The notes under the pieces were generated by a model. It was not told the DNA's origin, did no database searches, and saw only the letters and a program-made list of their open reading frames with translations. Of a stretch of 64,000 bases of DNA, positions 3,490 through 48,663 are shown one piece after another; position 1 is the first letter of the stretch; each line of letters begins with the position of its first letter. The DNA is from Ascidiella aspersa (taxonomy: Eukaryota), in contig OZ004613.1 of the NCBI GenBank assembly GCA_963924565.1, positions 15,500,001 through 15,564,000 on the forward strand. Direction: 5' to 3'. A program made the translations under genes and the position numbers.

Positions 3490-4505
3490 CTAAACATACC
3501 AGGCGACAAACATATTCCAAGCTTTGATCAACAGGCCAGTTAATAGATTAAAATATTTTTCAAAATATATCTTCGTGGCTGAACATATGGATTGGTATAA
3601 ACATTTTCCATCAAGATGCGAAACATAAAAGTCACTCGCATATGAGAAAATTCGTTTCCAATTCTCAGTGTCAGGCCCGTTTGATTCTGAACTGAGACTC
3701 TGCAACAACAAAAGCTATTTAAAAGGACAGTTTGATAAATTCGTGGCTGGAAAAGTACCAATGAAAACGATGTGACTTTCTGCGCAAACCCCTAATAAAA
3801 TAATAATCACATACGTTTTTACGTTAGTTACTATATCTTAGACAACATTTTACTTACCCATTTGTTATTCCGAAAGTATTTTGAGTTTGTGCAAAGTAGG
3901 CCTACCAGTTGTAGAAGTATGGCAATGCCAATTAGACCCGCGCAGAGATATATCGGGAAAAGGAAAGCTTGATAATCAGTTCCAGCCTTCAGGCAATTAC
4001 ACTTGCAATCGCTTACATTCGGTGATTGCTTTAGGGCAGGGACGACAGCAGCCAAGTAAGGGCTAATAGACCCTACTTTCAACACTTTTTCTTCCCACAT
4101 ATTTAAGCGATCTACATTTAATTCTTCCTTTAAAGGCGAATCCATAACCGATTTATCCTCCAGTTTTTCATGGTTCAAAAAATTGGTCGATTCCTGTTTA
4201 AGAGTTAGACGAGACAGACTAACCAGGAAAGATTCCAGCAACTCAGTTAAATTCCTTGAAAGAGGAACTACGTACTCTGGATACCTTTCGGCCACCCTTT
4301 CCGTTAAATCAGGCCGTTTTGGCGTACCACCGTTTACAAATTTTGTAATAGCCAGCGTCAGTACGCCAAATACGGCAAGCAAAACCACAGCAAAAATTAG
4401 CAAAGTTTTTCGTAGAGGACGTCGGTCTTCCAGAGGAATACGAAGCAAATGCATATCCATTGCTAACAATGTTTGCAAGAGAAATACTGTTAGCTCAATT
4501 TCCAT
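3490..4505 (-). CDS. Two-exon ~285-aa membrane protein with two hydrophobic segments, unknown family
   Basis: Exons 4505-3858 and 3699-3490 are joined by a phase-0 GTAAGT...TTGCAG intron (KW|SLSS). TM-like LLIFAVVLLAVFGVLTLAI and FLFPIYLCAGLIGIAILLQLVGLLC. The start could instead be the downstream MDMHLL. Confidence 0.65.
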
Positions 4506-5659
4506 TTGACACAGCTCCAAATTATTTATTATGACGCAACAAAAAGGTTTTGTTGTAAATATGTATGGAAATATTTTGTTTAATATATTATGCAAAGCAG
4601 ACACAACTTAACTAAGACAAGGTATAAGCACTGTGTAGCACATTGGCGTGTAGCAATCAAAGTGATTTAATCTTTTGTTTGGACATAATTTAACTATTTT
4701 ACGATGTTTTATTATTTTGCAAATTAATAACAAACCGTTTATGACGTCAAACTAATTAGCATATAATTGGCTACTATAGGACCAGTAAAAGTAATAATCT
4801 CGCATTTGTTTGTCGATACAGAAATTTTTAAAACTGATTGATAAGTGATAACAGAGAAAAAATTGCAATGTTTTTGGCACTTTTGCGAGATCAAAAGTTA
4901 TAACAGCTTCTGTCGACATTGAAAGTGAGAGTTTTCATGATGCATTTCAAGCATCAACATACGTATTATTTTCTGTGATATCACCTTGGCACATTATTTT
5001 GCAACCCACAATCTGGTCTATATTTTTAAGTTTAAACACTTATTGCAATTGCCCATAAAGTGACGTACGGAAGTGAACCAGTCTTGAGATCTTAAATTGA
5101 AAGTTGAAGATTTTAAGAGATCAGAGCTTTTTTTTTTTTTTTTTTTTTTGTTCATGTCCAGCATTGAATGCAAAATGTGGATCGAACTTTAAACTTTTTT
5201 ATAATATCAATGCTTCGCCGAAACAGCAAATGCAACTATTTTATACCGGTACATTACATGAACTTGCCTATAGTTTGGCCGTGAGCCCTGTTGTAATTGC
5301 ATTACTGGACTTAATGAAGCTTCTGAATCAGCTACTCGGCTAACTAGGCCTACATATTTCGTAAATAGCATCTACTATAGGCTATAACCTGTTCCGCCGT
5401 CTTTAAGTGATTTTTTTATCCACAAATGGTAAACAGAAATAAAGGCGCTATAAGTAGGTATAGAAAAGAAGTTAAGGATTATGGATGGGTTCTTATCAAT
5501 GAGCAAATAGGAAGCCAGGAATATCTAAACAAGCCAGTAATGTCCTGAGCTCGGTTCTCTGACAACCTATCTCCACTATAGGGACCAGGTGCCGGCACGA
5601 TATAGAGCCTAAGTTGGAATTGCGCATAACAGCAGGCCTACAGATTAACGTTTTTGGGA

Positions 5660-19748: not shown

Positions 19749-20553
19749 AAACTATAGTCCACCAACCTTTTTGTGTAAATATTCTGCCAACATTTTAGGT
19801 TTACCGAGTGGGCTACCTAAACTAGGTCCATTTAATGCATAGCCACGACCTCAAGTTCTGAAATTCAAACTTTTCAGGCCTTGAATGCCTTAGCTGTCGC
19901 AAACCTGTTCGTTTAGAACTGCAGTAACTTCTGACAGGTCGCAGGTGACATATAGTTGTGTATTTCTGATTTAGACAAATGTATTGGACTATAGAATATT
20001 AGTTTCTATAATTGAACATTATATGCTGTGTCTTTTTTCGGTGGTGGTATGCAAATATCCCGTTTTCTATCTTGATAATATGAGATCTTGTAATTGGAAT
20101 TCCTTTTACCTTGCAATTCCTTTTACCTTGTATGTCAACTATAAACTGTTCATCTAACAATATTTTTTTAGTTGTTAGTTATTTTAATATACAAAAAACA
20201 AAAATTATGCCAAGAACTTTTAAGATATTTGCATAAATCCGAAAAAAAATAACTGATTCGTGTTTCACCTGTTGTCAACAAAAACACCAAAAACGAGTGA
20301 ATGACGACGTTTCTAAACTTTTTTAAATTCTAGTTTGAAAAAATAAAAAGGAAAAGTTGTCAAACGGTGACTACAAGTTCTTTTTTCATGTGCATTGACG
20401 TTTTATGTAAGCGTGATGTTTTGGGGTCATATATAGGCTATACATATTAATCTCTATACGGTACATAATTCTTATAAATATTTAAATCACAAAACAAAAA
20501 CACGACTACGGCGAATTGAAATTTAACGAACAAAGGGAAGTCTTTACAAGTCT

Positions 20554-23500
20554 TTAAGCAGATTGAGCTGCTGTTGAGTTGGATGTGCCCGGCTGGTTTT
20601 CGTTCTTTGTAATGCCACTTTCGGTAGGCAAAACTTGGTCGTGGTCGTCATCGTCAACAATCAACATGCGGCGTATACTTCTCGAAGGCAGAAACACGTC
20701 ATCTCTATGACGTAAAGAAACATTAACTGCGAATGTAAAGTTCGCTTTTCGCGGCAAAATGGTCTTTTTTTGTTTAATCGCAAGAAATGTTTTTTGTGAA
20801 TACTGTTTTTTTAAATGAAGGTAAATATTGTAAATGAAACTATGTCTTTATTGCACACTAATTACTTACCCATCTCCTTCTGAAGCAAGCTTTCTCCCTG
20901 AAAAAATACATAGACCCAATGAGTGAAAATTAAAAGAGAATATTATTATTCCATAAACCAATCAAAATAGGCCTATACATTCCATGCGTAATATTTTACT
21001 GTTCAAAGGAGACACTCAAACGCTTTACTTAACCGCATTATCAATAATTTAAAAAATGTCAACACGTACGCTTTTGCCTTCTCAGACAACATGCCACTGC
21101 CGCAATCAGAATAATAACAAACAATATGCAGGCAACCGACACGGAAGCGGCGATGGCGACGTTTTTATTGTATTCCGAAGCATCGCCTTTCAAATGAACC
21201 AATTCGGTGGTTTGCGGGTGTCCAGGGTCGTTTATGATCACAGTGTAATCGCCCAGGTCGTCTGGCATTACCTATTATTTTAAGTTTTGAAGATTAATAA
21301 AACAAACCAAATATTATATTTTTCGACAATTTTGAAATTTGGATCACCTGGGAAAGTACTAAAATGACAAAATACATTATTGTAAAATTGTTTTTATAAG
21401 TTGCGTAAAAGAACTGAAATTAAATATACACAAACAATAAAAGAAATGCCATTCTAAAAGAAAAGGAGTGGAAGGTTTGAACATGTCTTGTGAATGTTTA
21501 ATTAACGAAATTACCGTACCTTGGGAAAATGTTTAGTAATAACTTGCTGGTGACTTTGCAATCCATCCAATAGAAATCCACCAATTTCACTTCCTTAAAA
21601 CAAATTTTCAATCACTCTTTATACCGTTACGCTTAAGCAGGGTAATTTGGGATGGGTCTATCTATATAGTGGCGACGGGCATAATGATATATTCTTGAAA
21701 ATTTAGTTGATTACCTATTGGTTTTGTTGAGATGTGAGGATTAGTTAGTTATTATTAGGGCCCGCAAAAGTCAATAAAGTTAAAAATTTTTAAGGAGCTC
21801 CGTTTGTCCACGAATCAAATAATAAAGTTGTTTATAGCACCTGGGGGACTGTTTCTAAGAAGTTTATAGGTTAAAATAAAGTTAAAATTTACAATAAAGT
21901 TAAAATTTATTAATAAAGTCAAAATTTGTCAAATTATGACTTTTGACAAAGTTTTTGTGTTTCTTGAGAGTAGTTTTTGTAAAAACGTCGTGAAAGCATT
22001 GTAAATCAGGAAATGCGACACAATTAAACCATAATGCCCACTTGGATCAGCAGTAACTTTTATCGCAAATTGTCATTTTTTTTATTTATTGTTACGCATT
22101 TAAAATATTTTTATAAAACACTTTATCTTCATAAACGTGGTCTTTTCGAAGATCAACAATTTGGATTTTAGAGATAGCCTACTGACATTCTATAATACAA
22201 AAATGCCCAAGCAAGCTAAATCGATCGCCCAAAAAACCGATGCACTTTTCATAATCCATAAAACACCTTGACTTTTCGACAAAATATCACGTTTGGGTCT
22301 AAAATCGACATAATATTATGTTTGGGTAACTGGCATCAATTCAAGGAAGAACTGTGGTTTATGTTAGGAACTCACCGTCTTTTATGATTTTTATGTTGCC
22401 TTTAGTGAGATTTTGGTATTTTGAATATACATGGATGAAAATGAATTTTGGTTGGCCTATTTTGGAATTGAAAGTTTGAACCCGTCTGCTGAAACCTGGT
22501 TCGTCTAAATTTACATAAATATTTTTAGTCATAAAAACAAATTATGTCATAAATAAGTAAATATCACAAAGATTAGCGTAATTTGGTAAAGGGTCGGCAT
22601 ATCATATTTAAGAGAAGTCGCAATATATATTGCTTAAAATGTTATCTATTATGTTCTACACGTGTTTTTACTTTAGTAGCAGTATTTTTCGAGTGTAATA
22701 ACTTATAAACAGATTGATATCCACGCGTGATATTTTTTCGGTCTTCCACAGCTGTTAAATAAGTCGAACGTAATAAATTAATAAAGAAAAAATTTAAATT
22801 AAGATGTTTTGATTACAAGCAGGAAATACATTGCAAATTAATTTGTTTCCATGGTTGAATAGTTTTGATCCCAGCCGGAGACTCAAACGCGCATCGGACG
22901 TGAATACCATCAACTTTCCAAGAAAATGTCAAATTGGCCCAGGAAACCTGTGATTACATAAAGCAGCCTGTTGTATTTTAAAATTATAATTTTTCATTTG
23001 GGTACATTATCAAGCTACATTATTTTTTTTTAAAGTAAACCAATTTAAATATAATTAAAACTTATAGGTTTATTTAGTAAATAAATCTTTATGACTGTAA
23101 AGTTTATATGTATTGGATAAACATTTTTTAATTTTTAGCTTGTGTTTGAACGACTTGAATGATGTATTACCTTATGTTGCTCTATTTTGTGGTGACCAAC
23201 ATACAATATGACCGACTTGTACTGGAAAGGATCTGGATTTTTGCAGAATAGCACGACTGGTTTTTTAGTGGGTAAGGATATACTTTTTTGTATCTTTCCT
23301 ACGTCTACCGTAATTCCTTAAAGCAAATGCATTTATTAGGTTTATTTTTTGCTTTAACCTAAGAGGGTGTACAATTTAATAAGAATGTCGTCGTTCACCG
23401 GTGCGATTTCTAATATACCAGGTTAAAATCCTCCACAAGTACTAACCTACATTTGCACATATTCATTTCACTTAAAAAATTATAATATTAACCAGATGGT

Positions 23501-25692
23501 AACCCGCAACCGCTATTCATGAAAAACGTTTTTTCATTTAAATATTAATTGTCGTCCCGACCTCTGTTTCTACAATGCATTCGTTTTTGCGTACTGTAAA
23601 CACTCGACTAGAAATTAGAACGCAAAAACTTGACTAAAGTCAAAACGAGCAATTATTCGATTCTAGTCTTTTTAAATAACTCAATTTATTACATAAAGCC
23701 TTAAGATTTGACATTTTAGTCAAACGAATGTTGCTTACAGCACACTTTTGATAATTAATAGTTAATTGCACAGCAAACCAATAACAAACCAATATACAAT
23801 ATCGGGTCGCCGTGTAAATGAAGGTTTGTGAATCGAATAAGCCCCAACCATATAAGTGAAACGTTATTCACTTAAAAACATATTTCTAGAAACAAATGCG
23901 TTTATTGTATAATTTATCATAAACATATATTTTTTAGTCAGCACAATAATAGAGTCAGGGGTTTATGGTCAGCTGACCTAGTTTACGAACCCTTAAATCC
24001 ATGTAAGCCTACTCTTATAAACAATCCTTATAAGTGGTCAAGGACCCTTGTTTAACAACCCCTGGGTTGCTCTGAGAAATACAGATTTGTTTGAAATCTA
24101 TATGACAATCGTATATATGGACGAAGTATTGTAACACGTTGGGTAATTATATTTCAGCAAAGGACTTCGCGCTACCACTTTAGACCCTGATCCTTTTAGT
24201 TGGTACAAAAGAAAGTATTTTTAAAATACAATGTCCTGACGTGCATTTTGTACCGCGAAACAGCCGTGACATCATATCCTGGCTATGCGATAAACAATGG
24301 CAAGTTTCGTGAGTTGAAAAAGACAATCTCAACACACGGTCCCAACTTCCTCTTATCTAACGCTAAATTATAACAACACTCTATAAAGGGCAATTCAACG
24401 CCTGACAACGAACTGTTTCAAAAACAAGTTTTCAATAGACACTTTTTTACGGCATTTGAATGCGCTTATATCCCGTTATATTTAAGATATATTCTTAAAA
24501 TGCCCTAGCTATCAGTCATCTGTCTATGAAACGCCATACCTGATGTTATTATTTTACAGGCTCTAATAAGACATGAAAACCAATTAGATACATGTTTACT
24601 CAAATCTACCTTTCCAACAGCTAATGTTTCCGGGATTGTCCCAACCTCCGGAGTCCTCGCATTTCACTGTTATCTGGTCAGTAACAGGATGAGTAAAGTT
24701 GCCGTGATTTGTCCCAAAGGGAACACCTTTTCTGCATTGCAAATCCACCAACTTGCTATTTAAGATAGATGATTTGAGTTCGCTGTTGGTATTTTGGTAC
24801 GTCGTACAGTGCAAATAACACGGGCGAAGAAAAACTAAAAACAACTTTTCAGATAAGGTTTGAGGTGTTTGTTTAACACTAGCTTACGTTTTATAGAAAC
24901 GTTTACTAGTGTCTATGTTAGTTAACCTAGTCTAGGGCTACTCAAACTTGGGTACGCGAGAGAAATTTCGGAGGTAGCCGAGCAAGTTATTTTACTGCTT
25001 GGTCCCGTGACAATTTTTGTAAAATAAATTTAAAATCATTAAGAAAATCGTTTGACACTATTTTCTGTCTTTTGTGAGCCATAATTGTCTGCTTCGTACA
25101 AATGAGCTTTTGAATTGCTTTGTCACGCTACTGTCCGAAAGAACATCAACTGTAGTGAAAAATCTACTACCTTGTTGATGATCCAGACCAGAGGCGTTAA
25201 ATGATCTGGTAATGTCTTTTGACTAACGTTTATCCTCGTTTTGCAGATAGACAATGTGGTTATGGCTTTATCCCACCAAAACACGTGTTTTGACTTTTCA
25301 ACTAATCATTTTTAAGGGGTACGGCATACATGCAGCTAAATCGAAAGGGTACGCAGCTAAAAAAAATTGTGCGAACCCCTAAACTAGTCTTTTGTGGGAA
25401 AATTTACAAACAGAGACTTTACCAAATTACACAACAATTCGAGTTTACCTTTTGGCGCTTAAAATTAAGGTAAGATAAAGGTGATTGAATTTTTTTTTAA
25501 TTAAGGTTTGTCCATGTTACAGACGGCAGATTGTCAATACCAGCTTATTTTGCAAAACACGAGCTATATAGTGTATTTTTTGTACATAAATACAAAGATA
25601 AAAGCACAATAAATTCAAAGTTTTTGGACATAAATACAAAGATACTTACAGCACATGCAAAATATGGTCAATCCGTTGTCATACAAACGCAT
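20554..25692 (-). CDS. Type I membrane protein, 371 aa: signal peptide, sushi/CCP-like domain, two Ig-like domains, TM helix, acidic cytoplasmic tail
   Basis: Nine exons: 25692-25650, 24834-24610, 23316-23171, 22947-22830, 22504-22376, 21593-21520, 21271-21070, 20897-20870 and 20704-20554. All GT-AG and frame-compatible (1116 nt). VKCEDSGGWDNPGNISC is sushi-like; VVLFC...WKVDGIHVRC and DDLGDYTV are Ig-like; TM VAIAASVSVACILFVIILIAAVACCL is followed by RRQKRRK. Confidence 0.85.
21756..22358 (+). mobile_element. Truncated copy of the TAGGGCC-TIR element at 31688-32392, in opposite orientation
   Basis: About 600 bp closely match the reverse complement of 32392-31760 (tagggcccgcaaaagtcaat...ggcatcaattcaaggaagaactgtgg). 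Confidence 0.88.
24933..25381. mobile_element. hAT (Buster/Charlie-like) MITE
   Basis: Ends tagggctactcaaact and gcgaaccccta. Flanks acctagtc/aactagtc form a 7/8 TSD with central TA. Confidence 0.7.
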
Positions 25693-25967
25693 CACTCAAC
25701 TATATATAAACAAACTTTTAAAACTTTTAATTAAAGTGTAACACCTATCAACAAAAAAAGTCGTAATTTTTGTATTTTACAATGCTGAACTCTCTTTCTA
25801 CCAACTAAAACCGTTCGCGCAAATCCATTATATTGTTGCACCCGTTTTCCACTGTCCAACGATAGAATCCAGACACAATAGCTTACGAAGTATAGCTATA
25901 AACAGTCTTACAGCGAACCGTGTGTTACGCACATCACGTCCGAAACTTAACATCCATGCTGCCAACA

Positions 25968-26266
25968 GGGGACGTGGCGTTATTTTGCACAATGTGCGCA
26001 AAAATGTGCACGCCAAAATGTGCAAAAAATGTGCGCACATTTTAAACTGCCTTCAAAAATGTGCACACTTGTTTCTAACAATGTGCGCACATTTTAAAGT
26101 TAGAACTCTAACTCTAACTCTAACTGTGCACATTTTTGAAGGCAGTTTAAAATGTGCGCACAAAAGTGTGCACATTTTTGAAGCCCTTTTAAAATGTTCG
26201 CACAATTTTTGCACATTTTGGCGTGCACATTTTTGCGCACATTGTGCAAATAATGTTCGCATCCCC
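25968..26266. mobile_element. Palindromic MITE built from TGTGCACA/TGTGCGCA units with a central (TCTAAC)3
   Basis: Long inverted arms (ttgcacaatgtgcgcaaaaatgtgcacgccaaaatgtgcaaaaa and its reverse complement), GGGG...CCCC ends, no clean TSD. Confidence 0.8.
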
Positions 26267-26653
26267 GTCTCCATGCTGCTTTGCAAAGGTCAGGCCATTG
26301 AAGTAAATGGACTTAGATTGCGGACAAACATTTTATGAAATGATTTTGTAAACGGTTTACGATAGATACCCAGGACATATCAGGAAACGTCAAGAATTTA
26401 TCTCATTTGCGGCACAGTTGAATCTTTAAAAGTTCGTAAGTTGACAGCATGTCTTCACAAAACAATACATTTGCTACCTGCTGCGCTATTGAATTATTAG
26501 GCCTACACATACCACCCAAAACCAAGCAGGATTAACAAAGTGTTAAGTGGATAAATTACGGCAGGCGATGGGCATTTTTTAACTTCGTGCGTTTTATTTT
26601 TTAATGTTTACTAACAGACAAAGAAAATTTGACGTTTAAATCTACCAAGGGGG

Positions 26654-28308: not shown

Positions 28309-34729
<6,421 letters not shown>

Positions 34730-39900: not shown

Positions 39901-41302
39901 CCCACAAATATAGCACATTAAACAATGTTTGCTCTTGCAATTTTTTGGCATAGAGACATAATAGCAATCAATGAAAAAATGTTACAGAAATAGATCTATT
40001 GAAAGGGATAAGTAACAATATTACTGATTAAAACTTGATAAAAGTTCTTTCCCGATACCGTCAGTAAAACCAGATAGAATGGTGCGCAAATCACATCAAT
40101 GTTGGATTATGTCACTGGGCACAATGTGCCTATATTAATAATACAGCAAAACATTGACTAAATTAAAACGTGAACAAAAATGATGTGCTAGAAACAAAAG
40201 GAGAGCAGTTTCATAATCAGCACTGAAAACATCAATCTATCCCATGTCCGTTTAAAATTGCTGTTGACGAGTGTTATTAGAGCTAATGTACTGATTCAAG
40301 ACTTATACTGTAGATTTATTAACTGGAGAGCTATAGTGTTACCTTTTTTCTTAATGCTTATATTCTCATAATATATACATTTGTTCAAAGAATCTCAGGA
40401 AAATTCAAGCATTTGATTGAGTCACAGAGATTAGAAGTAATCTCTTATGTTGAATTAGCCCAATCCACCTACTAAAATAGAAGTTGCATGACAGTAATAG
40501 ATGAGGCTTTTGTTAGAAATGTATGAGCAAAGCTAGAATATATTTGTTGACATTCTGTTCTAATGTCTGAAGAGTCCGAAGAACCAAAATATGAACGTAT
40601 GTTGCCAGTTTTCATTTTTGGATTGATAGTATGTTTCAAGCAAACCTTTCACGTTCACTTGATGATCTAATGACAGCTTAAAAAGTCATTAAATCTACCA
40701 GAAGGCTGGACCAGTGGTTGCACAACTTTTTACCTAGCTTTTATTTATTTATTAATGTATTAAAAAAGCACAAATATTAACTCCATATAAAAAAATGGCA
40801 CAAGTAGTTAAGTTAATCTATTAGGTTTTACACATGGTTTTACAAAGGATTGACCGGTAGGCAGAATGTGAAACATTCAACTAAAAAATCTAGGTTGATT
40901 TACAAACTGAAAATATGAGAATCTTATATAAGGTTTAAGCTTCATGCTGTTACTTTTCTGTTTAGGCATCATGCTGTTACTTTTTTTGTTTCTGACATGT
41001 TTGGGTAATTGTAAATATCAATAAATTTTTGAAAAAAGATGACCTAGATTTGGTGATAATTTTTGGTATTTTTTTAACTTAATTAAGATACGTCATGCAT
41101 ACATAAACCGATTTGAAATTAACTGGGATGTTATATATTGCAATTTTTTAAAACATCATTAGCTTACTAGTTACTACTAGGCTTTTTTCTATTATATTTC
41201 ATTTTACCAACATGTTTATATAATATTGATGTGGTAAATGTGATTACTGACCAGTTTCTGTCTTTATTTTAGGATTACATAACAAACTATAAAGAATAAA
41301 AC

Positions 41303-44300
41303 ATGACTTCAATTATCAGTAACATTTTTGAAAAAGTTACTCAAGTTTACAATGATCCATTTGCAATTCGAGAGGTAAATAATAATGACTATCAAAGAAA
41401 AAATGTGGTGACCTCATCAGACTACATTGCTCTGCATAAAGTCAACAATTATTATGATGTAATATTGCTAAACCCCAAGCGAGTAAGTCATGTTTTTCGA
41501 CTGTGTCATTTGCCACTCCCCAAAAAAAATGAAGCAAACACGTTTTATGGCAGTGCTGTATCAACCCTATCCATTTTATGTAAAAGCACTGACAAATGTT
41601 ACAACTTCAGCACCCTTCAAACAATCTGCACAACCCTAAGAACTCGAAATGCCTGGTCTCCTGTTCATGTGGCTGTAGAAGCTGGTTTAGGTGGTGTTTA
41701 CACTAACTCCGGGATTCTACAGGAGTGGCTTGATAGCCAGTGGTGTGAGAATCATTACACACCTTTACACTTGGCATGTAAATTAAAGTCGAACACTATT
41801 GTTGCAGAACTTTTGGATGCTGGGGCATTGTTATCTAAAGTGGATGACAATGGCAACACAGCACTTCACCTTGCTGTAAAAGAAGGTACCAACGATATAT
41901 TGTCTTTACTTTGCAAGCATGCAAATGAGGATGTCCTTAATATTTTGAATGCTGACGGGGAGTCAGCTCTTCATGTTGCTTGCAAGCAAAATCGATTTGA
42001 AGAATGCAAAACTCTTTTGCTCTCAGGAGCTGACCCACTTATACCAGGGTCTATTGGGTTTCCTCTTCACTATGCATTAAAGTATGGTTCCATAAAAACA
42101 GCAGAAATTCTTCTTGATAAACATCCAGGTCAGGTTCACATGTCCTGTGTAAAGCATGGTGCATTGCCTCTTCATTGGAGCAAAACTCCAGAGGACATTA
42201 ACCTGCTTTTGAAGTATGATTCACCTATAGATGTTGCAAGTGATCAGTCTCATTTGCCACTTCATGTAATGGTTCTGCGAAATAGGTTGGAGGCTGCTGT
42301 TGCATTAATACTCGGAAATGCTGATGTTAACAGTAGGGGAAAGAATGGCAACACAGCTTTACACCTGGCTATAACTCATGACTGTATCATGTTGGTAAAG
42401 TTGTTGCTACTGTTCGGGGCAGATCACAGTCTCAAAAATGACTTCGGAGAAACTGCTGGTCTGCTTGCTGTCAGAAGTAACAAGCCAAACAAAGAAAATA
42501 TTGTTGAAATGTTGTCATGCCTTGGAGCATTGAATATTGGTTCACCAATTAAGCCTGCACAAGCAACAACTTCACACAATATATCTAAGAATAAATGTAC
42601 ATCAACCGGTTGCAAAGTGTTATGTTTGGATGGTGGAGGAGTCAGAGGACTTATTCTCACTCAAATACTTATGGCAATAGAGCAACAGACAGGCAAAAAA
42701 ACAAGAGAATTATTTGACTGGATTGCTGGCACAAGCACTGGGGGCATTTTGGCTATAGCACTTTCACAGGGTAGAAGTGCGGTGGAAGCACAGAGGCTTT
42801 ATTTTCGCTTCAAGGATAAAGTGTTCAGTGGTGGCAGACCTTACAACAACAAGATAATTGAAGAATTTCTAAAACAAGAGTTTGGTGAAGATGCAACACT
42901 AGAGAGCATTAGTCATGGCCCTAAAGTAATTGTGACTGCCACTTTGGCTGATAGAAAACCTGTTAAACTGCAGTTGTTTCGCAGCTACCAGGCCAACATT
43001 TACAAAGATAAGTCTCCTATTCTGTCCAAAAAACTAAGTAAATCAGACTTACAGAAATTAAAACATCCACATTCTACAAATAAGTCTGAATTTTTATGGA
43101 AAGTTGCTCGTTGCAGTGGAGCTGCACCAACTTACTTTTCCCCAATGGATAAATATTTGGATGGAGGCTTGCTAGCAAACAACCCAACGTTAGATGCTCT
43201 TACTGAAATACATCGATTCTCAAAGACAAATGGTGAAAATATGAACATCAAGTTATGTGTTTCATTGGGGACTGGCCAACTTGCAACCACTTTAGCAAAG
43301 TAAGTTTATTTTAATTTTTAATCCTTTTTTTTATATTTGTTTTAAACAAAAAGTCCGACACTTGGTATTATGGTAGCATCCGAAAATAATTTTTAACTAA
43401 ATGAAATAAATTGTTGTTTAAATTATGTTTAAACATCTTTTTCTATTTTAAGGGAATAACACTTCCATGTATATATAGAAAACACATATACTTCCATTTC
43501 AAGTGAGCATATTTGGTAAAATATAAAGTAGAAAAATATTAAGTACACGTACACCACTAACCAACAAGTCCATACACTTGAAATGACTTTGACACATTCT
43601 TTACAAATCAGAACAATAATATAACTTAAAGGACATTAATTCAACTTATTTCAATAGTTCTTTCAATTCTTCTCTTCCAACAGATCTGTTGATGTGACAT
43701 GGCCTACTAATCCGGTTGCCCTAGTAAATTCTGCACTGGCAGGAATTGAACTCACCCAGATGATGGTAGACGTGGCTTGTGAGAGTAATTCTCATGTGGT
43801 GGATAGAGCTAGTGCATGGTGAGAATAAGCTTACCTTCAAATGCAAGTAGCATCTGATGGTTTTATGTTAGGATTATTTTTTGCTTGTGTAGTAATCCAT
43901 CAACTGATGCTTTCCTATTTTTTGTGTTATGCTTTTCGAATCGTTATGTTAAACCAGTGGTTCTCAAACTTTTTTTGTTGCGACGCCTTTGGAAAAGTTT
44001 TCTGGACTTGCGACGCACCCGCAAATAAAAGTTAATGAAAAAACTTTTTTATTTAAGTTGGTTTATTGATACAACAACAAAAAGAAATGCATATGATTTA
44101 ATGTGACGTGTGGGCTTGTTTGTTTGTACAAAGTTCATTGAATCTTGGGAGAATTTTTTAAATTGCCACCCGCATTTCTCTTTCTATGTTAATTCATGAT
44201 CAATATTTGCTTTTTATCACCGCCAAGGCAGAAAACCCTGCTTCACATAAATACGACGTGGCGAATGGGATAATAATTCGTAGTGCTTTCTGTACCAAAG

Positions 44301-46608
44301 CTGGATAATCCGCATTTATTGAAATCCAAAAATTTGACAGATTTCCTAAATTAAACATCCTTTTCAGGGAATTGTCACAGGAAAGGTCAATGTAGGCTTC
44401 TTTTTCTTGTGGAGTAAAAGACAACGGAGTAGGTTAGGCAAAAGGGTCACGAACCCATTCGTAGTTCAATAAATTTTCGGGGAAGTATTTTGCAAATTTT
44501 AACTCGAGCTTGTACAAATGTTGCCCAAATATGCTTCGCAAATTTGAAGGCAGCGTCATACTTTTCTTTTCAAGCAAATTGGACAAGAAAATAAAGTATT
44601 GAGAGCTTCCAGACAGGTTTATTATATCTTCTTTCCACAATAGCAGCTTTTTAACGAATGCGGCAATTTTATCTAAAACGTCAAGCATGTTTTTATCAGG
44701 CCCTTGCATAGAAATGTTCAGCTTATTCAGTTTGGCGAAGATATCACACAAGTAAGCCAATTTCAATAAAAAATCGTTGTTATCTAACAATCTGCAAGTG
44801 GATTATTTTCTTGCTGCAAAAAAGCGTGAAGTTCATCTACCAATTCGTAGAAGCGTTCAAAGGATTTTCCAAGCAAAAGCCACCGGGATGAACAATAAAA
44901 TAGAAAACTCCGATGCTCTGCATTTATTTCTCCACAAAGTTTTTCAAAAACTCTCGACTTCAGTGGGCGTGTTTTAATGAAGTTAATAACTTTGATGACA
45001 ACTGCAACTGTGTCGCAAAGTTCAGGACTCAGTTCACGAGCAACTAACGCCTCGCGGTGAATCATACAGTGGGTCCACTTAGCCATGGGTGCACGTTTTT
45101 GTATTAAACTTTGCAGACCACAACAGCTACCAGACATTGCTTTGGCACCATCTGTACATATACTAATACACTTTTCCCCTTTGGCACCATCTGTACATAT
45201 ACTAATACACTTTTCCCAATCTAAGTTGTTTGTTAAAATATATTTGTCGATTATACTGAAGAGATCAATTCCTCGACATCCAAGTTCAATAGGTTTGCAA
45301 AATAGCAGCTCTTCTACTAATTTTCCTTTTGAGAAGTCAACAAATCGAACATAAAAAAATTAAGTGTGCATCTCGACTGCTATCCGTTGCCTCATCTAAT
45401 TGCAGACCAAATTCTGTCAGCTTCATTTGTTCAATCAGTTGATCGCGAATATCCTTCGCCATGTCATCAATCCGGCGACACATGGTATCATTTGATAGGG
45501 GTACCAACTTTAACTTTTCTCCAGCTCCTCCTATCATCGTATTTGCAAGATCGATTGCGGCAGGCAGTATTAGTTCCTCAGCAATGGTATGAGGCTTTTT
45601 ACACTTAGCAATTCTGTGCGCAACTTGATAGGACACTAATAAAGCCTTTGATGGGAGCTGCGTAAATTTTGAAATAGCGGATACTTGCCTTAATCATTTA
45701 ATTTTCGAACAAAAAAATGCCCAGGCTTGCCTACAAACTGTGGATGTGATGTTGTTAAATGACATTTAAGCTTATTAGGTAACATGCTCTCACTGGCCAA
45801 CACTTTGCTGCATATAACACACTGAGGTCTTTCCTCATTATCCTGCAAGACAAAGGTGAAACCAAAATCTAAATAACTGTCCATGTACTTGCGAGATTTC
45901 TACTTAGGACAGTCATCTTTATTTGCAGATTTACGCTTAGCTTGCAACACTACTTCTCTGTTGACATCCACTTTTTTGTCTAATTAGTCTGACTTAAAAT
46001 TACACAATGTTAATGCTGTATAGGCTGTTGTTGCGTAACAATGCATAATAAACATGTCAGGAATTAAAACTTTGTAACAGTTAATTTAAATCTATTAACA
46101 GCACAATTTTTGTTTAACTGATTTTCAAAAAAGTTATAATACATTTAACCTCATTTTATTATATAAACTGAGTTCAGCCACGAAACGGAACTATTCTGCG
46201 ACGCCCTTGGAAAAATAAAACGACGCACCAGGGCGTCGCGACGCACAGTTTGAGAACCACTGTGTCACTTAAAAACACAAATTGCCAGATTTTTACTTGC
46301 TTTATAGCATGCAGCATACGTTCTACATAAGTAGCAAACTGTTAAGACATCAATTTGATAGTTACTAATTCTTTAAAATGCTTCACTAATAAACCGTAAT
46401 ATTGTTGGGGAAGTGCAGTCAATTTTCTGTGATTTTAAGGTGTGAGTCAATCGGTGCACATTACATACGACTTAATCCAACGTTGGAGGAGGACATTTCA
46501 TTGGATGAAAGAAATGACACAAAGCTTATTGACATCATGTGGCAAACTCAATTGTATCTCCATGAGAATAAACATATAATTGAGGAAATGGCAAGTTATT
46601 TCCTTTAA
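41303..46608 (+). CDS. PLA2G6: 85/88-kDa calcium-independent phospholipase A2 (iPLA2-beta), 766 aa, ankyrin repeats plus patatin domain
   Basis: Exons 41303-43299, 43684-43818 and 46440-46608 are in frame (2301 nt). Ankyrin repeats (GNTALHLA), LCLDGGGVRG, GTSTG nucleophile, SGAAPTYF, DGG, VVDRASAWCE and RLNPTLEEDISLDE. 5'UTR acceptor at about 41272. Confidence 0.95.
43955..46262 (-). mobile_element. Full-length but decayed Buster-family hAT DNA transposon in PLA2G6 intron 2
   Basis: 16-bp perfect TIRs cagtggttctcaaact and an internal transposase. Left flank tgttaaac; right flank diverged (tgtcactt). Confidence 0.92.
44100..45884 (-). pseudogene. Buster/ZBED5/SCAND3-like transposase pseudogene
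   Basis: Fragments YLDFGF...RPQCVIC (BED finger), KKPHTIAEELILPAA, LQLDEATD, WTHCMIHREAL, LAYLCDIF and PFATSYLCEAGFS are split by stops and frameshifts. A 39-bp tandem duplication lies at 45140-45217. Confidence 0.9.
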
Positions 46609-47990: not shown

Positions 47991-48663
47991 CAGTGCTTCT
48001 CAACCTTTTTTTGACCAAAAAACCTTTTTTTTTTTTTTTTTTAAGCGACCAAAATATTAAACGTAAATTAATAACTCAAAAATTACCCAACTTTTTCAAG
48101 CATACCGGTAAGTGAACTACACACATGTAAGACAATTTATAATATAAACATAAAAGTTCAATCTAAGTAATGTGAGCCTTAATTTTGTATTGTTTCTTCA
48201 ACTTTGTCAAAATTGGAGCAATCTTATTCAGTGCCAATCTCATGTCATCTTCCGGCTGAAGACGGTTTCTATTCTTTGTTTTAATGTGAGTGAGCGAAGA
48301 AAATCCGCTTTCACATAAACAGGTAGTAACAAATTGCAAGAGAGCTCTTACTGCGTGCGTGGCAACAATATTTTTTTCGTTCTTGATTTTTGTCACAAAT
48401 TGACCAAGAGTTGCTTTCTTGAATTTATTCGTCAATGATCTGTCGCACTGAACATCAATGAATTCCTCTTTAAATCCAGTAAGGCTTTGGTAGCTTTCAG
48501 GCAAAGCATCGACATTAATTACAAATGTATTGCGCACCCATTCGAAATTTGCACTTTTAGGATTAATCGAATCAATGAAGCTAAATGAGTGACTATGACA
48601 AGCTGGACATCACCAAAGCACACCTCCTCCATATTTTCCAGAAACTGATTAAAAACAGGAAAT
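47991..48663 (-). mobile_element. Truncated second Buster-type hAT: one TIR plus C-terminal dimerisation-domain fragment
   Basis: TIR cagtgcttctcaacc at 47991. ORF fragment FVTTCLCESGFSSLTHIKTKNRNRL, with frameshifted upstream FPVFNQFLEN and EWVRN. Confidence 0.85.

Follow-up and report, generated by a model that had tools for sequence, protein, structure and literature searches.

A nine-exon gene of Ascidiella aspersa encoding a predicted sushi and immunoglobulin-type surface protein, and its possible kinship with the Botryllus fester co-receptors

The gene, its transcript and the predicted protein

The stretch of Ascidiella aspersa DNA analysed here (64,000 nucleotides; contig OZ004613.1, positions 15,500,001 to 15,564,000; hereafter the window) carries on its minus strand a gene of nine exons running from position 25692 to 20554. 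Its 371-amino acid product combines a short hydrophobic signal-like start, a predicted sushi (complement control protein, CCP) domain, two predicted immunoglobulin (Ig)-like domains, a single transmembrane helix and a tyrosine-free tail. We lean towards reading it as a lone surface binding or adhesion protein of sushi-C2-Ig type, probably related to the fester co-receptors (FcoR) of Botryllus and incapable of signalling through tyrosine motifs.

The gene is present and its coding strand is transcribed over seven of the nine exons. All eight introns are bounded by GT-AG, and splicing yields one stop-free frame of 371 codons. The intron phases are in order 1, 1, 0, 1, 1, 0, 1 and 2, and they are consistent across all eight junctions. 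The GC content is 0.34–0.50 in the exons versus 0.22–0.35 in the introns. The RNA evidence comes from one stranded run (X5), about 6% of which was read; it amounts to a few dozen reads over the whole gene, so that dips in depth are uninformative. Reads lie over exons 2 and 4–9 and the 3′ untranslated region (UTR) at an estimated depth of 1–8, all in the one mate orientation that fits a minus-strand transcript, while five intronic bins had zero reads. Exon 3 is covered by 24 bases of RNA. Exon 1 has a consensus GTAAGT donor and the only in-frame Met preceding the ectodomain, and RNA depth in its bin is 0. Support for the junctions comes from the sequence alone; the 15 RNA junctions listed from a total of 59 all lie in repeats. 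The original prediction of a nine-exon, 371-amino acid type I protein with a signal-like start and one transmembrane segment is upheld by these data. The coordinates of the features are collected in Table 1.

Table 1. Exons of the gene and associated features, in window positions.
Feature	Positions	Strand	Description
Exon 1	25650..25692	-	Start codon and first half of the predicted signal peptide (residues 1–14); phase 1
Exon 2	24610..24834	-	Remaining signal peptide and sushi/CCP-like domain; phase 1-1; with RNA depth
Exon 3	23171..23316	-	First half of Ig domain 1 (predicted C2 type, Cys114); phase 1-0; required for the frame
Exon 4	22830..22947	-	Second half of Ig domain 1; phase 0-1, ends in Tyr178; RNA depth ~7
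Exon 5	22376..22504	-	Start of predicted Ig domain 2, lacking the B-strand Cys and C-strand Trp; phase 1-1; RNA depth ~8
Exon 6	21520..21593	-	Middle of predicted Ig domain 2; phase 1-0; RNA depth ~6
Exon 7	21070..21271	-	D-x-G-x-Y strand of predicted Ig domain 2 (Gly252 is codon 7), short stalk, transmembrane helix, Cys306/307 and basic stop-transfer; phase 0-1
Exon 8	20870..20897	-	28-nt tail exon; phase 1-2; strong acceptor and donor; with RNA depth
Exon 9	20554..20704	-	Remainder of the Tyr-free tail, short Asp run and stop codon; with RNA depth
Probable 3′ UTR	20188..20553	-	Stranded RNA depth ~3 in bins 20228-20655 (~350 bases); ATTAAA hexamer near 20188
High-copy repeat in intron 5 (outside the protein)	21780..22357	.	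Contig word depth ~50,000–160,000 versus 45–100 on the flanks

The 5′ part of the gene was inspected for additional coding segments. Neither an extra V-type Ig (IgV) exon nor an alternative exon was found in introns 1 and 2 or upstream, where the 5′ end is without RNA confirmation. The longest stop-free stretch of intron 1 has 60 codons, a scan of introns 1 and 2 for exon chains returned no well-scoring chain, and the interval up to the next upstream gene holds nothing Ig-like. A 45-nt phase-1 candidate exon (25215-25171) was discarded; it would break the signal peptide and is unsupported. Upstream of the start codon there may be a non-coding first exon, given strong minus-strand donors at 25911 and 25886 and an acceptor at 25744. 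About 600 bases of gene-strand RNA map in intron 2 (23652-24079) with no exon that would fit them. A secreted form carrying only the sushi domain is conceivable, because read-through of exon 2 meets a stop three codons past its donor. Two observations concern repeats: a second copy of the intron 5 repeat seems to lie near 32100-32350, and another very high-copy repeat, with inverted ends, is found at 25960-26290 just upstream of the gene.

The predicted transmembrane helix spans approximately residues 283–307, has no charged residue and precedes two Cys and a basic cluster. One of its faces carries small residues (Ala284-x3-Ser288-x3-Ala292). The last Tyr of the protein is the extracellular residue 279; the tail of 64 amino acids has none, as expected from the original prediction of a tail devoid of the tyrosines of immunoreceptor tyrosine-based inhibition or activation motifs (ITIM/ITAM). 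The same tail had been described as acidic, which applies to a patch including the Asp run; overall its charge is nearly neutral (11 Asp/Glu versus 10 Lys/Arg). No PDZ-type carboxyl-terminal end was recognised. The ectodomain has four N-glycosylation sequons.

Sushi and immunoglobulin-like domains

The sushi-Ig-Ig makeup originally proposed holds to different degrees along the protein. A sushi/CCP domain in exon 2 is moderately supported. Its key residues are Cys20/24, Cys48, Cys73, Trp79, Cys87 and Trp88. The end of the exon fits the pattern C-x(4-5)-W-x(5-10)-C, Cys73 and Trp79 being separated by 5 residues and Trp79 and Cys87 by 7, inside the range of 57 sushi domains of the same genome. 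The gap between the second and third Cys is 24, versus 13–14 in those 57 domains (the control pattern allowed at most 18 at this position). In the ESM Atlas, exon 2 gave scores of 0.90–0.92 and its ten best family matches all belong to the sushi clan. A phmmer search of 1.84 billion representative sequences returned a sole match, to a protein with 13 sushi repeats, summed over 12 stretches. Aligned by hhalign with the 57 sushi domains, exon 2 scored above 100 of 100 shuffled sequences, on 15 columns. It reached 1.2 bits against a custom sushi hidden Markov model (HMM; HMMER), a value equalled by 42 of 2000 shuffles. A structure modelled from the single sequence is all beta with a low-confidence predicted local distance difference test (pLDDT) of 54 and has no Foldseek match at E 0.001.

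The second Ig domain is weakly supported. Exon 7 was found to match the sodium-channel beta-2 subunit end to end among Protein Data Bank (PDB) sequences (E 0.004), and in the ESM Atlas it retrieves receptors with Ig and helix at 0.81–0.86, which we take as a lead only. When this domain was aligned with 60 I-set domains by hhalign, 2 of 100 shuffles scored as high. It would be a divergent domain: aliphatic residues occupy the aligned positions of the core Cys, Trp and Cys, and only D-x-G-x-Y is kept. The first Ig domain is assigned to the C2 type by motif only. A Cys pair spaced by 43 residues is present, together with a C2-type F-G strand motif that was defined after viewing the sequence and occurs in 33 of 20000 shuffles.

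Other searches were less telling. Custom HMMs (HMMER) gave no significant score to the two Ig domains (604 and 149 of 2000 shuffles as high), and no sushi or Ig family was recovered by Pfam from seven exons submitted each alone. Searches of PDB sequences gave only matches with E above 0.4 for exons 2, 3 and 4, including a weak one of exon 3 to V-delta (E 0.65), and nothing for exon 5. In a set of 5.8 billion sequences none of the candidates passed as homologs, neither for exon 2 (0 of 5) nor for exon 7 (0 of 90) or exon 9 (0 of 8); with queries of 49–74 residues these are weak tests. The protein keeps the description, given from the start, of having no recognisable ortholog in the exon searches run.

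Comparison with the Botryllus fester co-receptors and other systems

The Botryllus data used below are those of the consulted parts of PMC12582321. The fester family (FF1-FF45) is described there as having an IgV domain, a sushi domain, three transmembrane helices and no cytoplasmic tyrosine motif, which agrees with the statement in the original prediction that Ig folds occur in that family. The FcoR consist of a signal peptide, IgV, sushi, C2 and further Ig domains and one transmembrane helix, with tyrosine motifs; their genes are clustered, mostly head-to-head with a fester gene. The protein studied here shares with fester one predicted sushi domain, a predicted Ig fold and the absence of a cytoplasmic tyrosine motif. 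It differs by having the sushi domain first, followed by two Ig domains and one helix, and by lacking the C-G-Y-x-C sushi motif present in most FF sequences compared; neither intron 1 nor the region upstream of the gene has room or a signal for an IgV exon. The fester-like identity first suggested therefore has to be given up, and the matching family is FcoR, which had not been named. With FcoR the protein shares the order of sushi, C2-type Ig (called here from motifs only), further Ig and single helix, a last Ig domain without B-strand Cys and, by eye, a small-residue zipper at the start of the helix. Unlike FcoR it has no amino-terminal V-type Ig domain, no ITIM, hemITAM or core tyrosine motif in the tail, and a short stalk; it measures 371 amino acids versus 520–610, and in the searches run its gene is a single copy, outside any cluster and without a fester partner. 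It belongs to neither family: it resembles an FcoR without the first domain and the tyrosines.

Intron positions were compared as well. The FcoR sites were deduced by eye from truncated protein sequences in Dataset S1 of PMC12582321, each of which follows a full-length paralog up to a fixed position and then runs on into amino acids that spell out a donor. At site (a), a phase-0 intron in the C2 domain, a Gly and the F-strand Cys are the 14th and 19th codons downstream (FcoR52/53 compared with 55, FcoR75 with 2). Exon 4 likewise follows a phase-0 intron and has Gly152 as codon 14 and Cys157 as codon 19. At site (b), a phase-0 intron in the last Ig domain, the Gly of D-x-G-x-Y is the 7th codon; FcoR19 (compared with 61) and FcoR14 (compared with 69) depart there, and FcoR27, joining after Gln, gives the acceptor side. 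Exon 7 also follows a phase-0 intron and has its Gly252 at this very codon. Site (c) is a phase-1 intron inside a Tyr between the two Ig domains of FcoR62, found here at Tyr178. As a control, in 64 other Ig strands from 38 loci of the genome site (b) was never an acceptor, nor was site (a) a true one, its two AG matches being exonic; two nectin-like C2 domains, a small control, lacked an acceptor at site (a) as well. A further shared feature is a Trp placed directly after the last sushi Cys, present in 35 of the 39 FcoR counted and in this protein versus none of 57 other sushi domains of this genome. We consider that the module extending from the sushi domain to the membrane is likely to have a common ancestry in this protein and in FcoR.

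Several points weigh against this kinship. The comparison was made by eye. Site (b) is a recurring ascidian intron site: elsewhere in this genome a titin-like gene and a receptor phosphatase, both unrelated, use it too, and because it turned up there the count of 0 in 64 controls underestimates short exons. A genome-wide pattern for the start of exon 7 had 7 matches (this gene, two unrelated Ig genes and four non-Ig) versus 11 for the control pattern. Site (c) occurs also in a nectin-like gene. The intron separating sushi and C2 is one codon off (Cys+3 here, Cys+2 in FcoR52/64), the intron at Gly221 has no counterpart seen in FcoR, and, to judge from FcoR18, 28 and 40, FcoR seem to have an intron separating the last Ig domain from the stalk, which is absent here. 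A match in exon number was dropped, since FcoR probably has that intron before the stalk. The Cys patterns diverge too: FcoR sushi domains have six Cys with a C-x-C pair, where four or five Cys and no C-x-C are found here, and the last FcoR Ig domain has an F-G Cys pair that is missing. The 39 FcoR counted for the Cys-Trp junction are paralogs of one another and the 57 control sushi domains are mostly followed by another sushi domain. In addition, Ig domain 1 aligns with the I-set profile no better than shuffled sequences (21 of 100 as high, hhalign), and the best named match of exon 7 is a V-set protein.

Other known systems resemble the protein in part. As in two nectin-like loci of this genome, its C2-type F-G strand ends in a Y-x-P junction, but sushi takes the place of the amino-terminal V domain of nectin/CADM-like proteins and there is no similarity at ortholog level. 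The whole protein compared with five other loci bearing C2-set domains revealed no similarity, and these loci have no sushi domain. The resemblance to the MPZ/sodium-channel beta proteins is the end-to-end alignment of exon 7 with beta-2; the core Cys and Trp of the last Ig domain are replaced here. In a nectin-like gene at G000:C1:39.646 Mb the V-type exon also lacks the F-strand Cys, so that Ig domains without Cys are not unique to this gene. The Ciona receptor vCRL1, a candidate ortholog, reportedly carries Ig domains as well. No Ciona match was obtained in the protein-set searches with exons 2, 7 and 9. In the consulted parts of PMC9265791, PMC8849226 and PMC6916515, vCRL1 is a highly polymorphic sushi receptor of blood and follicle cells that is needed for blood formation; the likeness is that of an ascidian sushi-containing surface receptor, and the difference its high polymorphism, little being seen here in few samples. 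The Alr genes of Hydractinia resemble this one in kind only, their Ig domains lacking diagnostic residues and escaping profile searches. They form a cluster of 41 genes with V and I domains, often with ITAM/ITIM, and no sushi domain is mentioned in the abstract (PMC9546547).

Copy number, alleles, competing explanations and neighbouring genes

Genome searches with exons 2, 3, 4, 5 and 7 recovered this locus alone, apart from one match on contig C4 that overlaps a repeat end, is accompanied by no further exons and was set aside as due to chance; relatives below about 30% identity could escape this coarse first pass. No second copy was found by comparing the whole protein with the 264 kb around the gene (100 kb on each side). 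The neighbouring genes code for a tetraspanin downstream and, head-to-head upstream, a BACE-like aspartic protease, with an ankyrin-patatin phospholipase also nearby; no fester gene adjoins. Allelic data are available from three to four samples. Run X1 is identical to the window over the gene. The contigs of X2 have 20 differences over the gene, and the 19 listed comprise 6 coding and 13 non-coding changes. The coding ones are four replacement bases and two silent changes that preserve the reading frame and alter 3 of the 371 residues, all within the Ig domains. X5 has two of the residue changes of X2, and residue 160 is found in three states among the reference, X2 and X5. The alleles seen are thus 99% identical, with a ratio of non-synonymous to synonymous polymorphism (pN/pS) of ~0.6, from 4 and 2 changes. 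Between the most distant fester alleles, identity falls to 78% according to the consulted parts of PMC12582321.

An allele-discriminating role needs polymorphism or a gene family, and neither is seen in these samples. A part in allorecognition, as contemplated in the original prediction, is consequently unsupported: the searches run found no paralogs, the adjoining genes include no fester partner and alleles differ little in the three to four samples. We regard it as improbable that the protein is nevertheless a true polymorphic self-marker or recognition receptor, comparable to vCRL1 or to the binding chain of a fester-type pair, that signals through a tyrosine-bearing partner encoded elsewhere. 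Such a role would agree with the rapid divergence that left no relative in the searches with exons 2, 7 and 9, with the location of all three residue differences in Ig domains and the three states of residue 160, and with precedents: the sushi protein vCRL1 is itself polymorphic and belongs to blood and follicle cells, fester proteins likewise carry no tyrosines and many FcoR are monomorphic (PMC12582321, consulted parts). The near identity of the alleles and the lack of a cluster, with a protease gene in the head-to-head position, argue against it. It is very improbable that the gene model is incomplete or partly wrong, be it by other 5′ exons (a missed IgV, for example), by an unused exon 3 or because the locus is a decaying remnant. 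Exons 1 and 3 are nearly devoid of RNA depth, a few reads fall in intron 2, none of the junctions listed belongs to the gene, and where the mature protein begins is uncertain because of the five Cys around the region of signal cleavage. Nevertheless, skipping exon 3 breaks the frame (its introns are of phases 1 and 0), the second allele keeps it, the scans of introns 1 and 2 and of the upstream interval were negative, and dips mean little with so few reads.

A different possibility is that an ascidian adhesion protein of the Ig superfamily was built independently, by joining a sushi exon to a nectin/CADM-like C2-Ig pair through phase-1 exon shuffling, tied to FcoR by nothing more than the Ig exons widespread in ascidians. 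This genome is rich in sushi and Ig exons (150 scored sushi matches and 147 Ig_3 matches), and they have been shuffled, as exemplified by a phosphatase with sushi, lectin, EGF, Ig and FN3 domains; one of the shared intron sites recurs in unrelated genes, exon 7 matches sodium-channel beta-2 and the Cys patterns are unlike those of FcoR. We consider this origin unlikely, in view of the two exact internal intron matches, the Cys-Trp junction and the domain order common to FcoR. The two nectin-like C2 domains checked have neither the C2 intron nor a sushi domain, and show no similarity.

The preferred reading remains that of a lone surface binding or adhesion protein probably akin to FcoR. Its anatomy suggests that the two Ig domains would act as a stalk lifting the sushi domain off the membrane, this tip reaching a protein ligand that sits on another cell or belongs to the extracellular coat. 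Through the small-residue zipper of its helix, the protein may pair with a copy of itself or with a partner. Palmitoylation is likely at the Cys pair, and the basic cluster would tie the protein to the cortex. Because the tail has no Tyr and the helix no charged residue, neither SH2 docking nor the usual pairing with ITAM adaptors is expected; any signal would have to arise at Ser/Thr sites or in a partner bound laterally. In this reading the protein would be an adhesion molecule, a ligand or a binding chain, not a receptor that tells alleles apart. A more tentative proposal, which we put forward with reserve, is that the gene is a surviving single-copy form of the module behind FcoR: an ancient ascidian adhesion protein of sushi-C2-Ig type that, in botryllids, might have gained a variable V domain and a tyrosine tail and only afterwards multiplied.

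Invertebrate allorecognition genes are said to have no obvious homologs outside their own families (PMC12582321, consulted parts). In the literature searched, which leaves most subscription journals outside, nothing relevant was found on fester homologs in other ascidians or on this domain order, and FcoR are named in Botryllus only. If true, a lone FcoR relative in another ascidian lineage would show the building material of these receptors and the order in which V domain, tyrosine tail and gene cluster were acquired. Should the single-copy module proposal also hold, it would be the first relative of an invertebrate allorecognition receptor family outside its clade, with a testable non-immune origin. 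A relative found by exon structure rather than by sequence would also provide a way to seek more of them. If the link to FcoR fails, the gene is one more fast-evolving ascidian Ig-type surface protein.

Elsewhere in the window, the ankyrin-patatin phospholipase (iPLA2-beta-like) lies on the plus strand at 41300-43300 as one intronless open frame of at least 667 codons. On the minus strand, long open frames of 746 and 258 codons without Pfam match are found at 304-2541 and 3834-4607, and broken pieces of a frame that by eye is DNA-transposase-like at 44200-45700 and 48166-48609, one of them without Pfam match. The genome as a whole measures 308.6 Mb, nearly all of which appears to lie in nine contigs of 26–41 Mb, two of these lengths being lower bounds. 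One GH6 match and two vanabin matches exceed the Pfam cut-offs, which marks a tunicate, probably a phlebobranch. Botryllus schlosseri, with its 16 chromosomes (PMC12582321), represents another lineage. In the rest of the genome, a receptor phosphatase-like gene on the minus strand of G000:C1:28.070-28.093 Mb has about seven six-Cys sushi exons followed by lectin-like, EGF, Ig and FN3-like exons and a protein tyrosine phosphatase (PTP)-like domain, sushi and Ig being identified by profile and the others by eye. At G000:C2:35.37-36.71 Mb, dozens of Ig_3 matches are spread over ~1.3 Mb on both strands; the stretches sampled consist of I-set and FN3 exons with an L1/contactin-like look, suggesting a large tandem array of L1/contactin-like genes.

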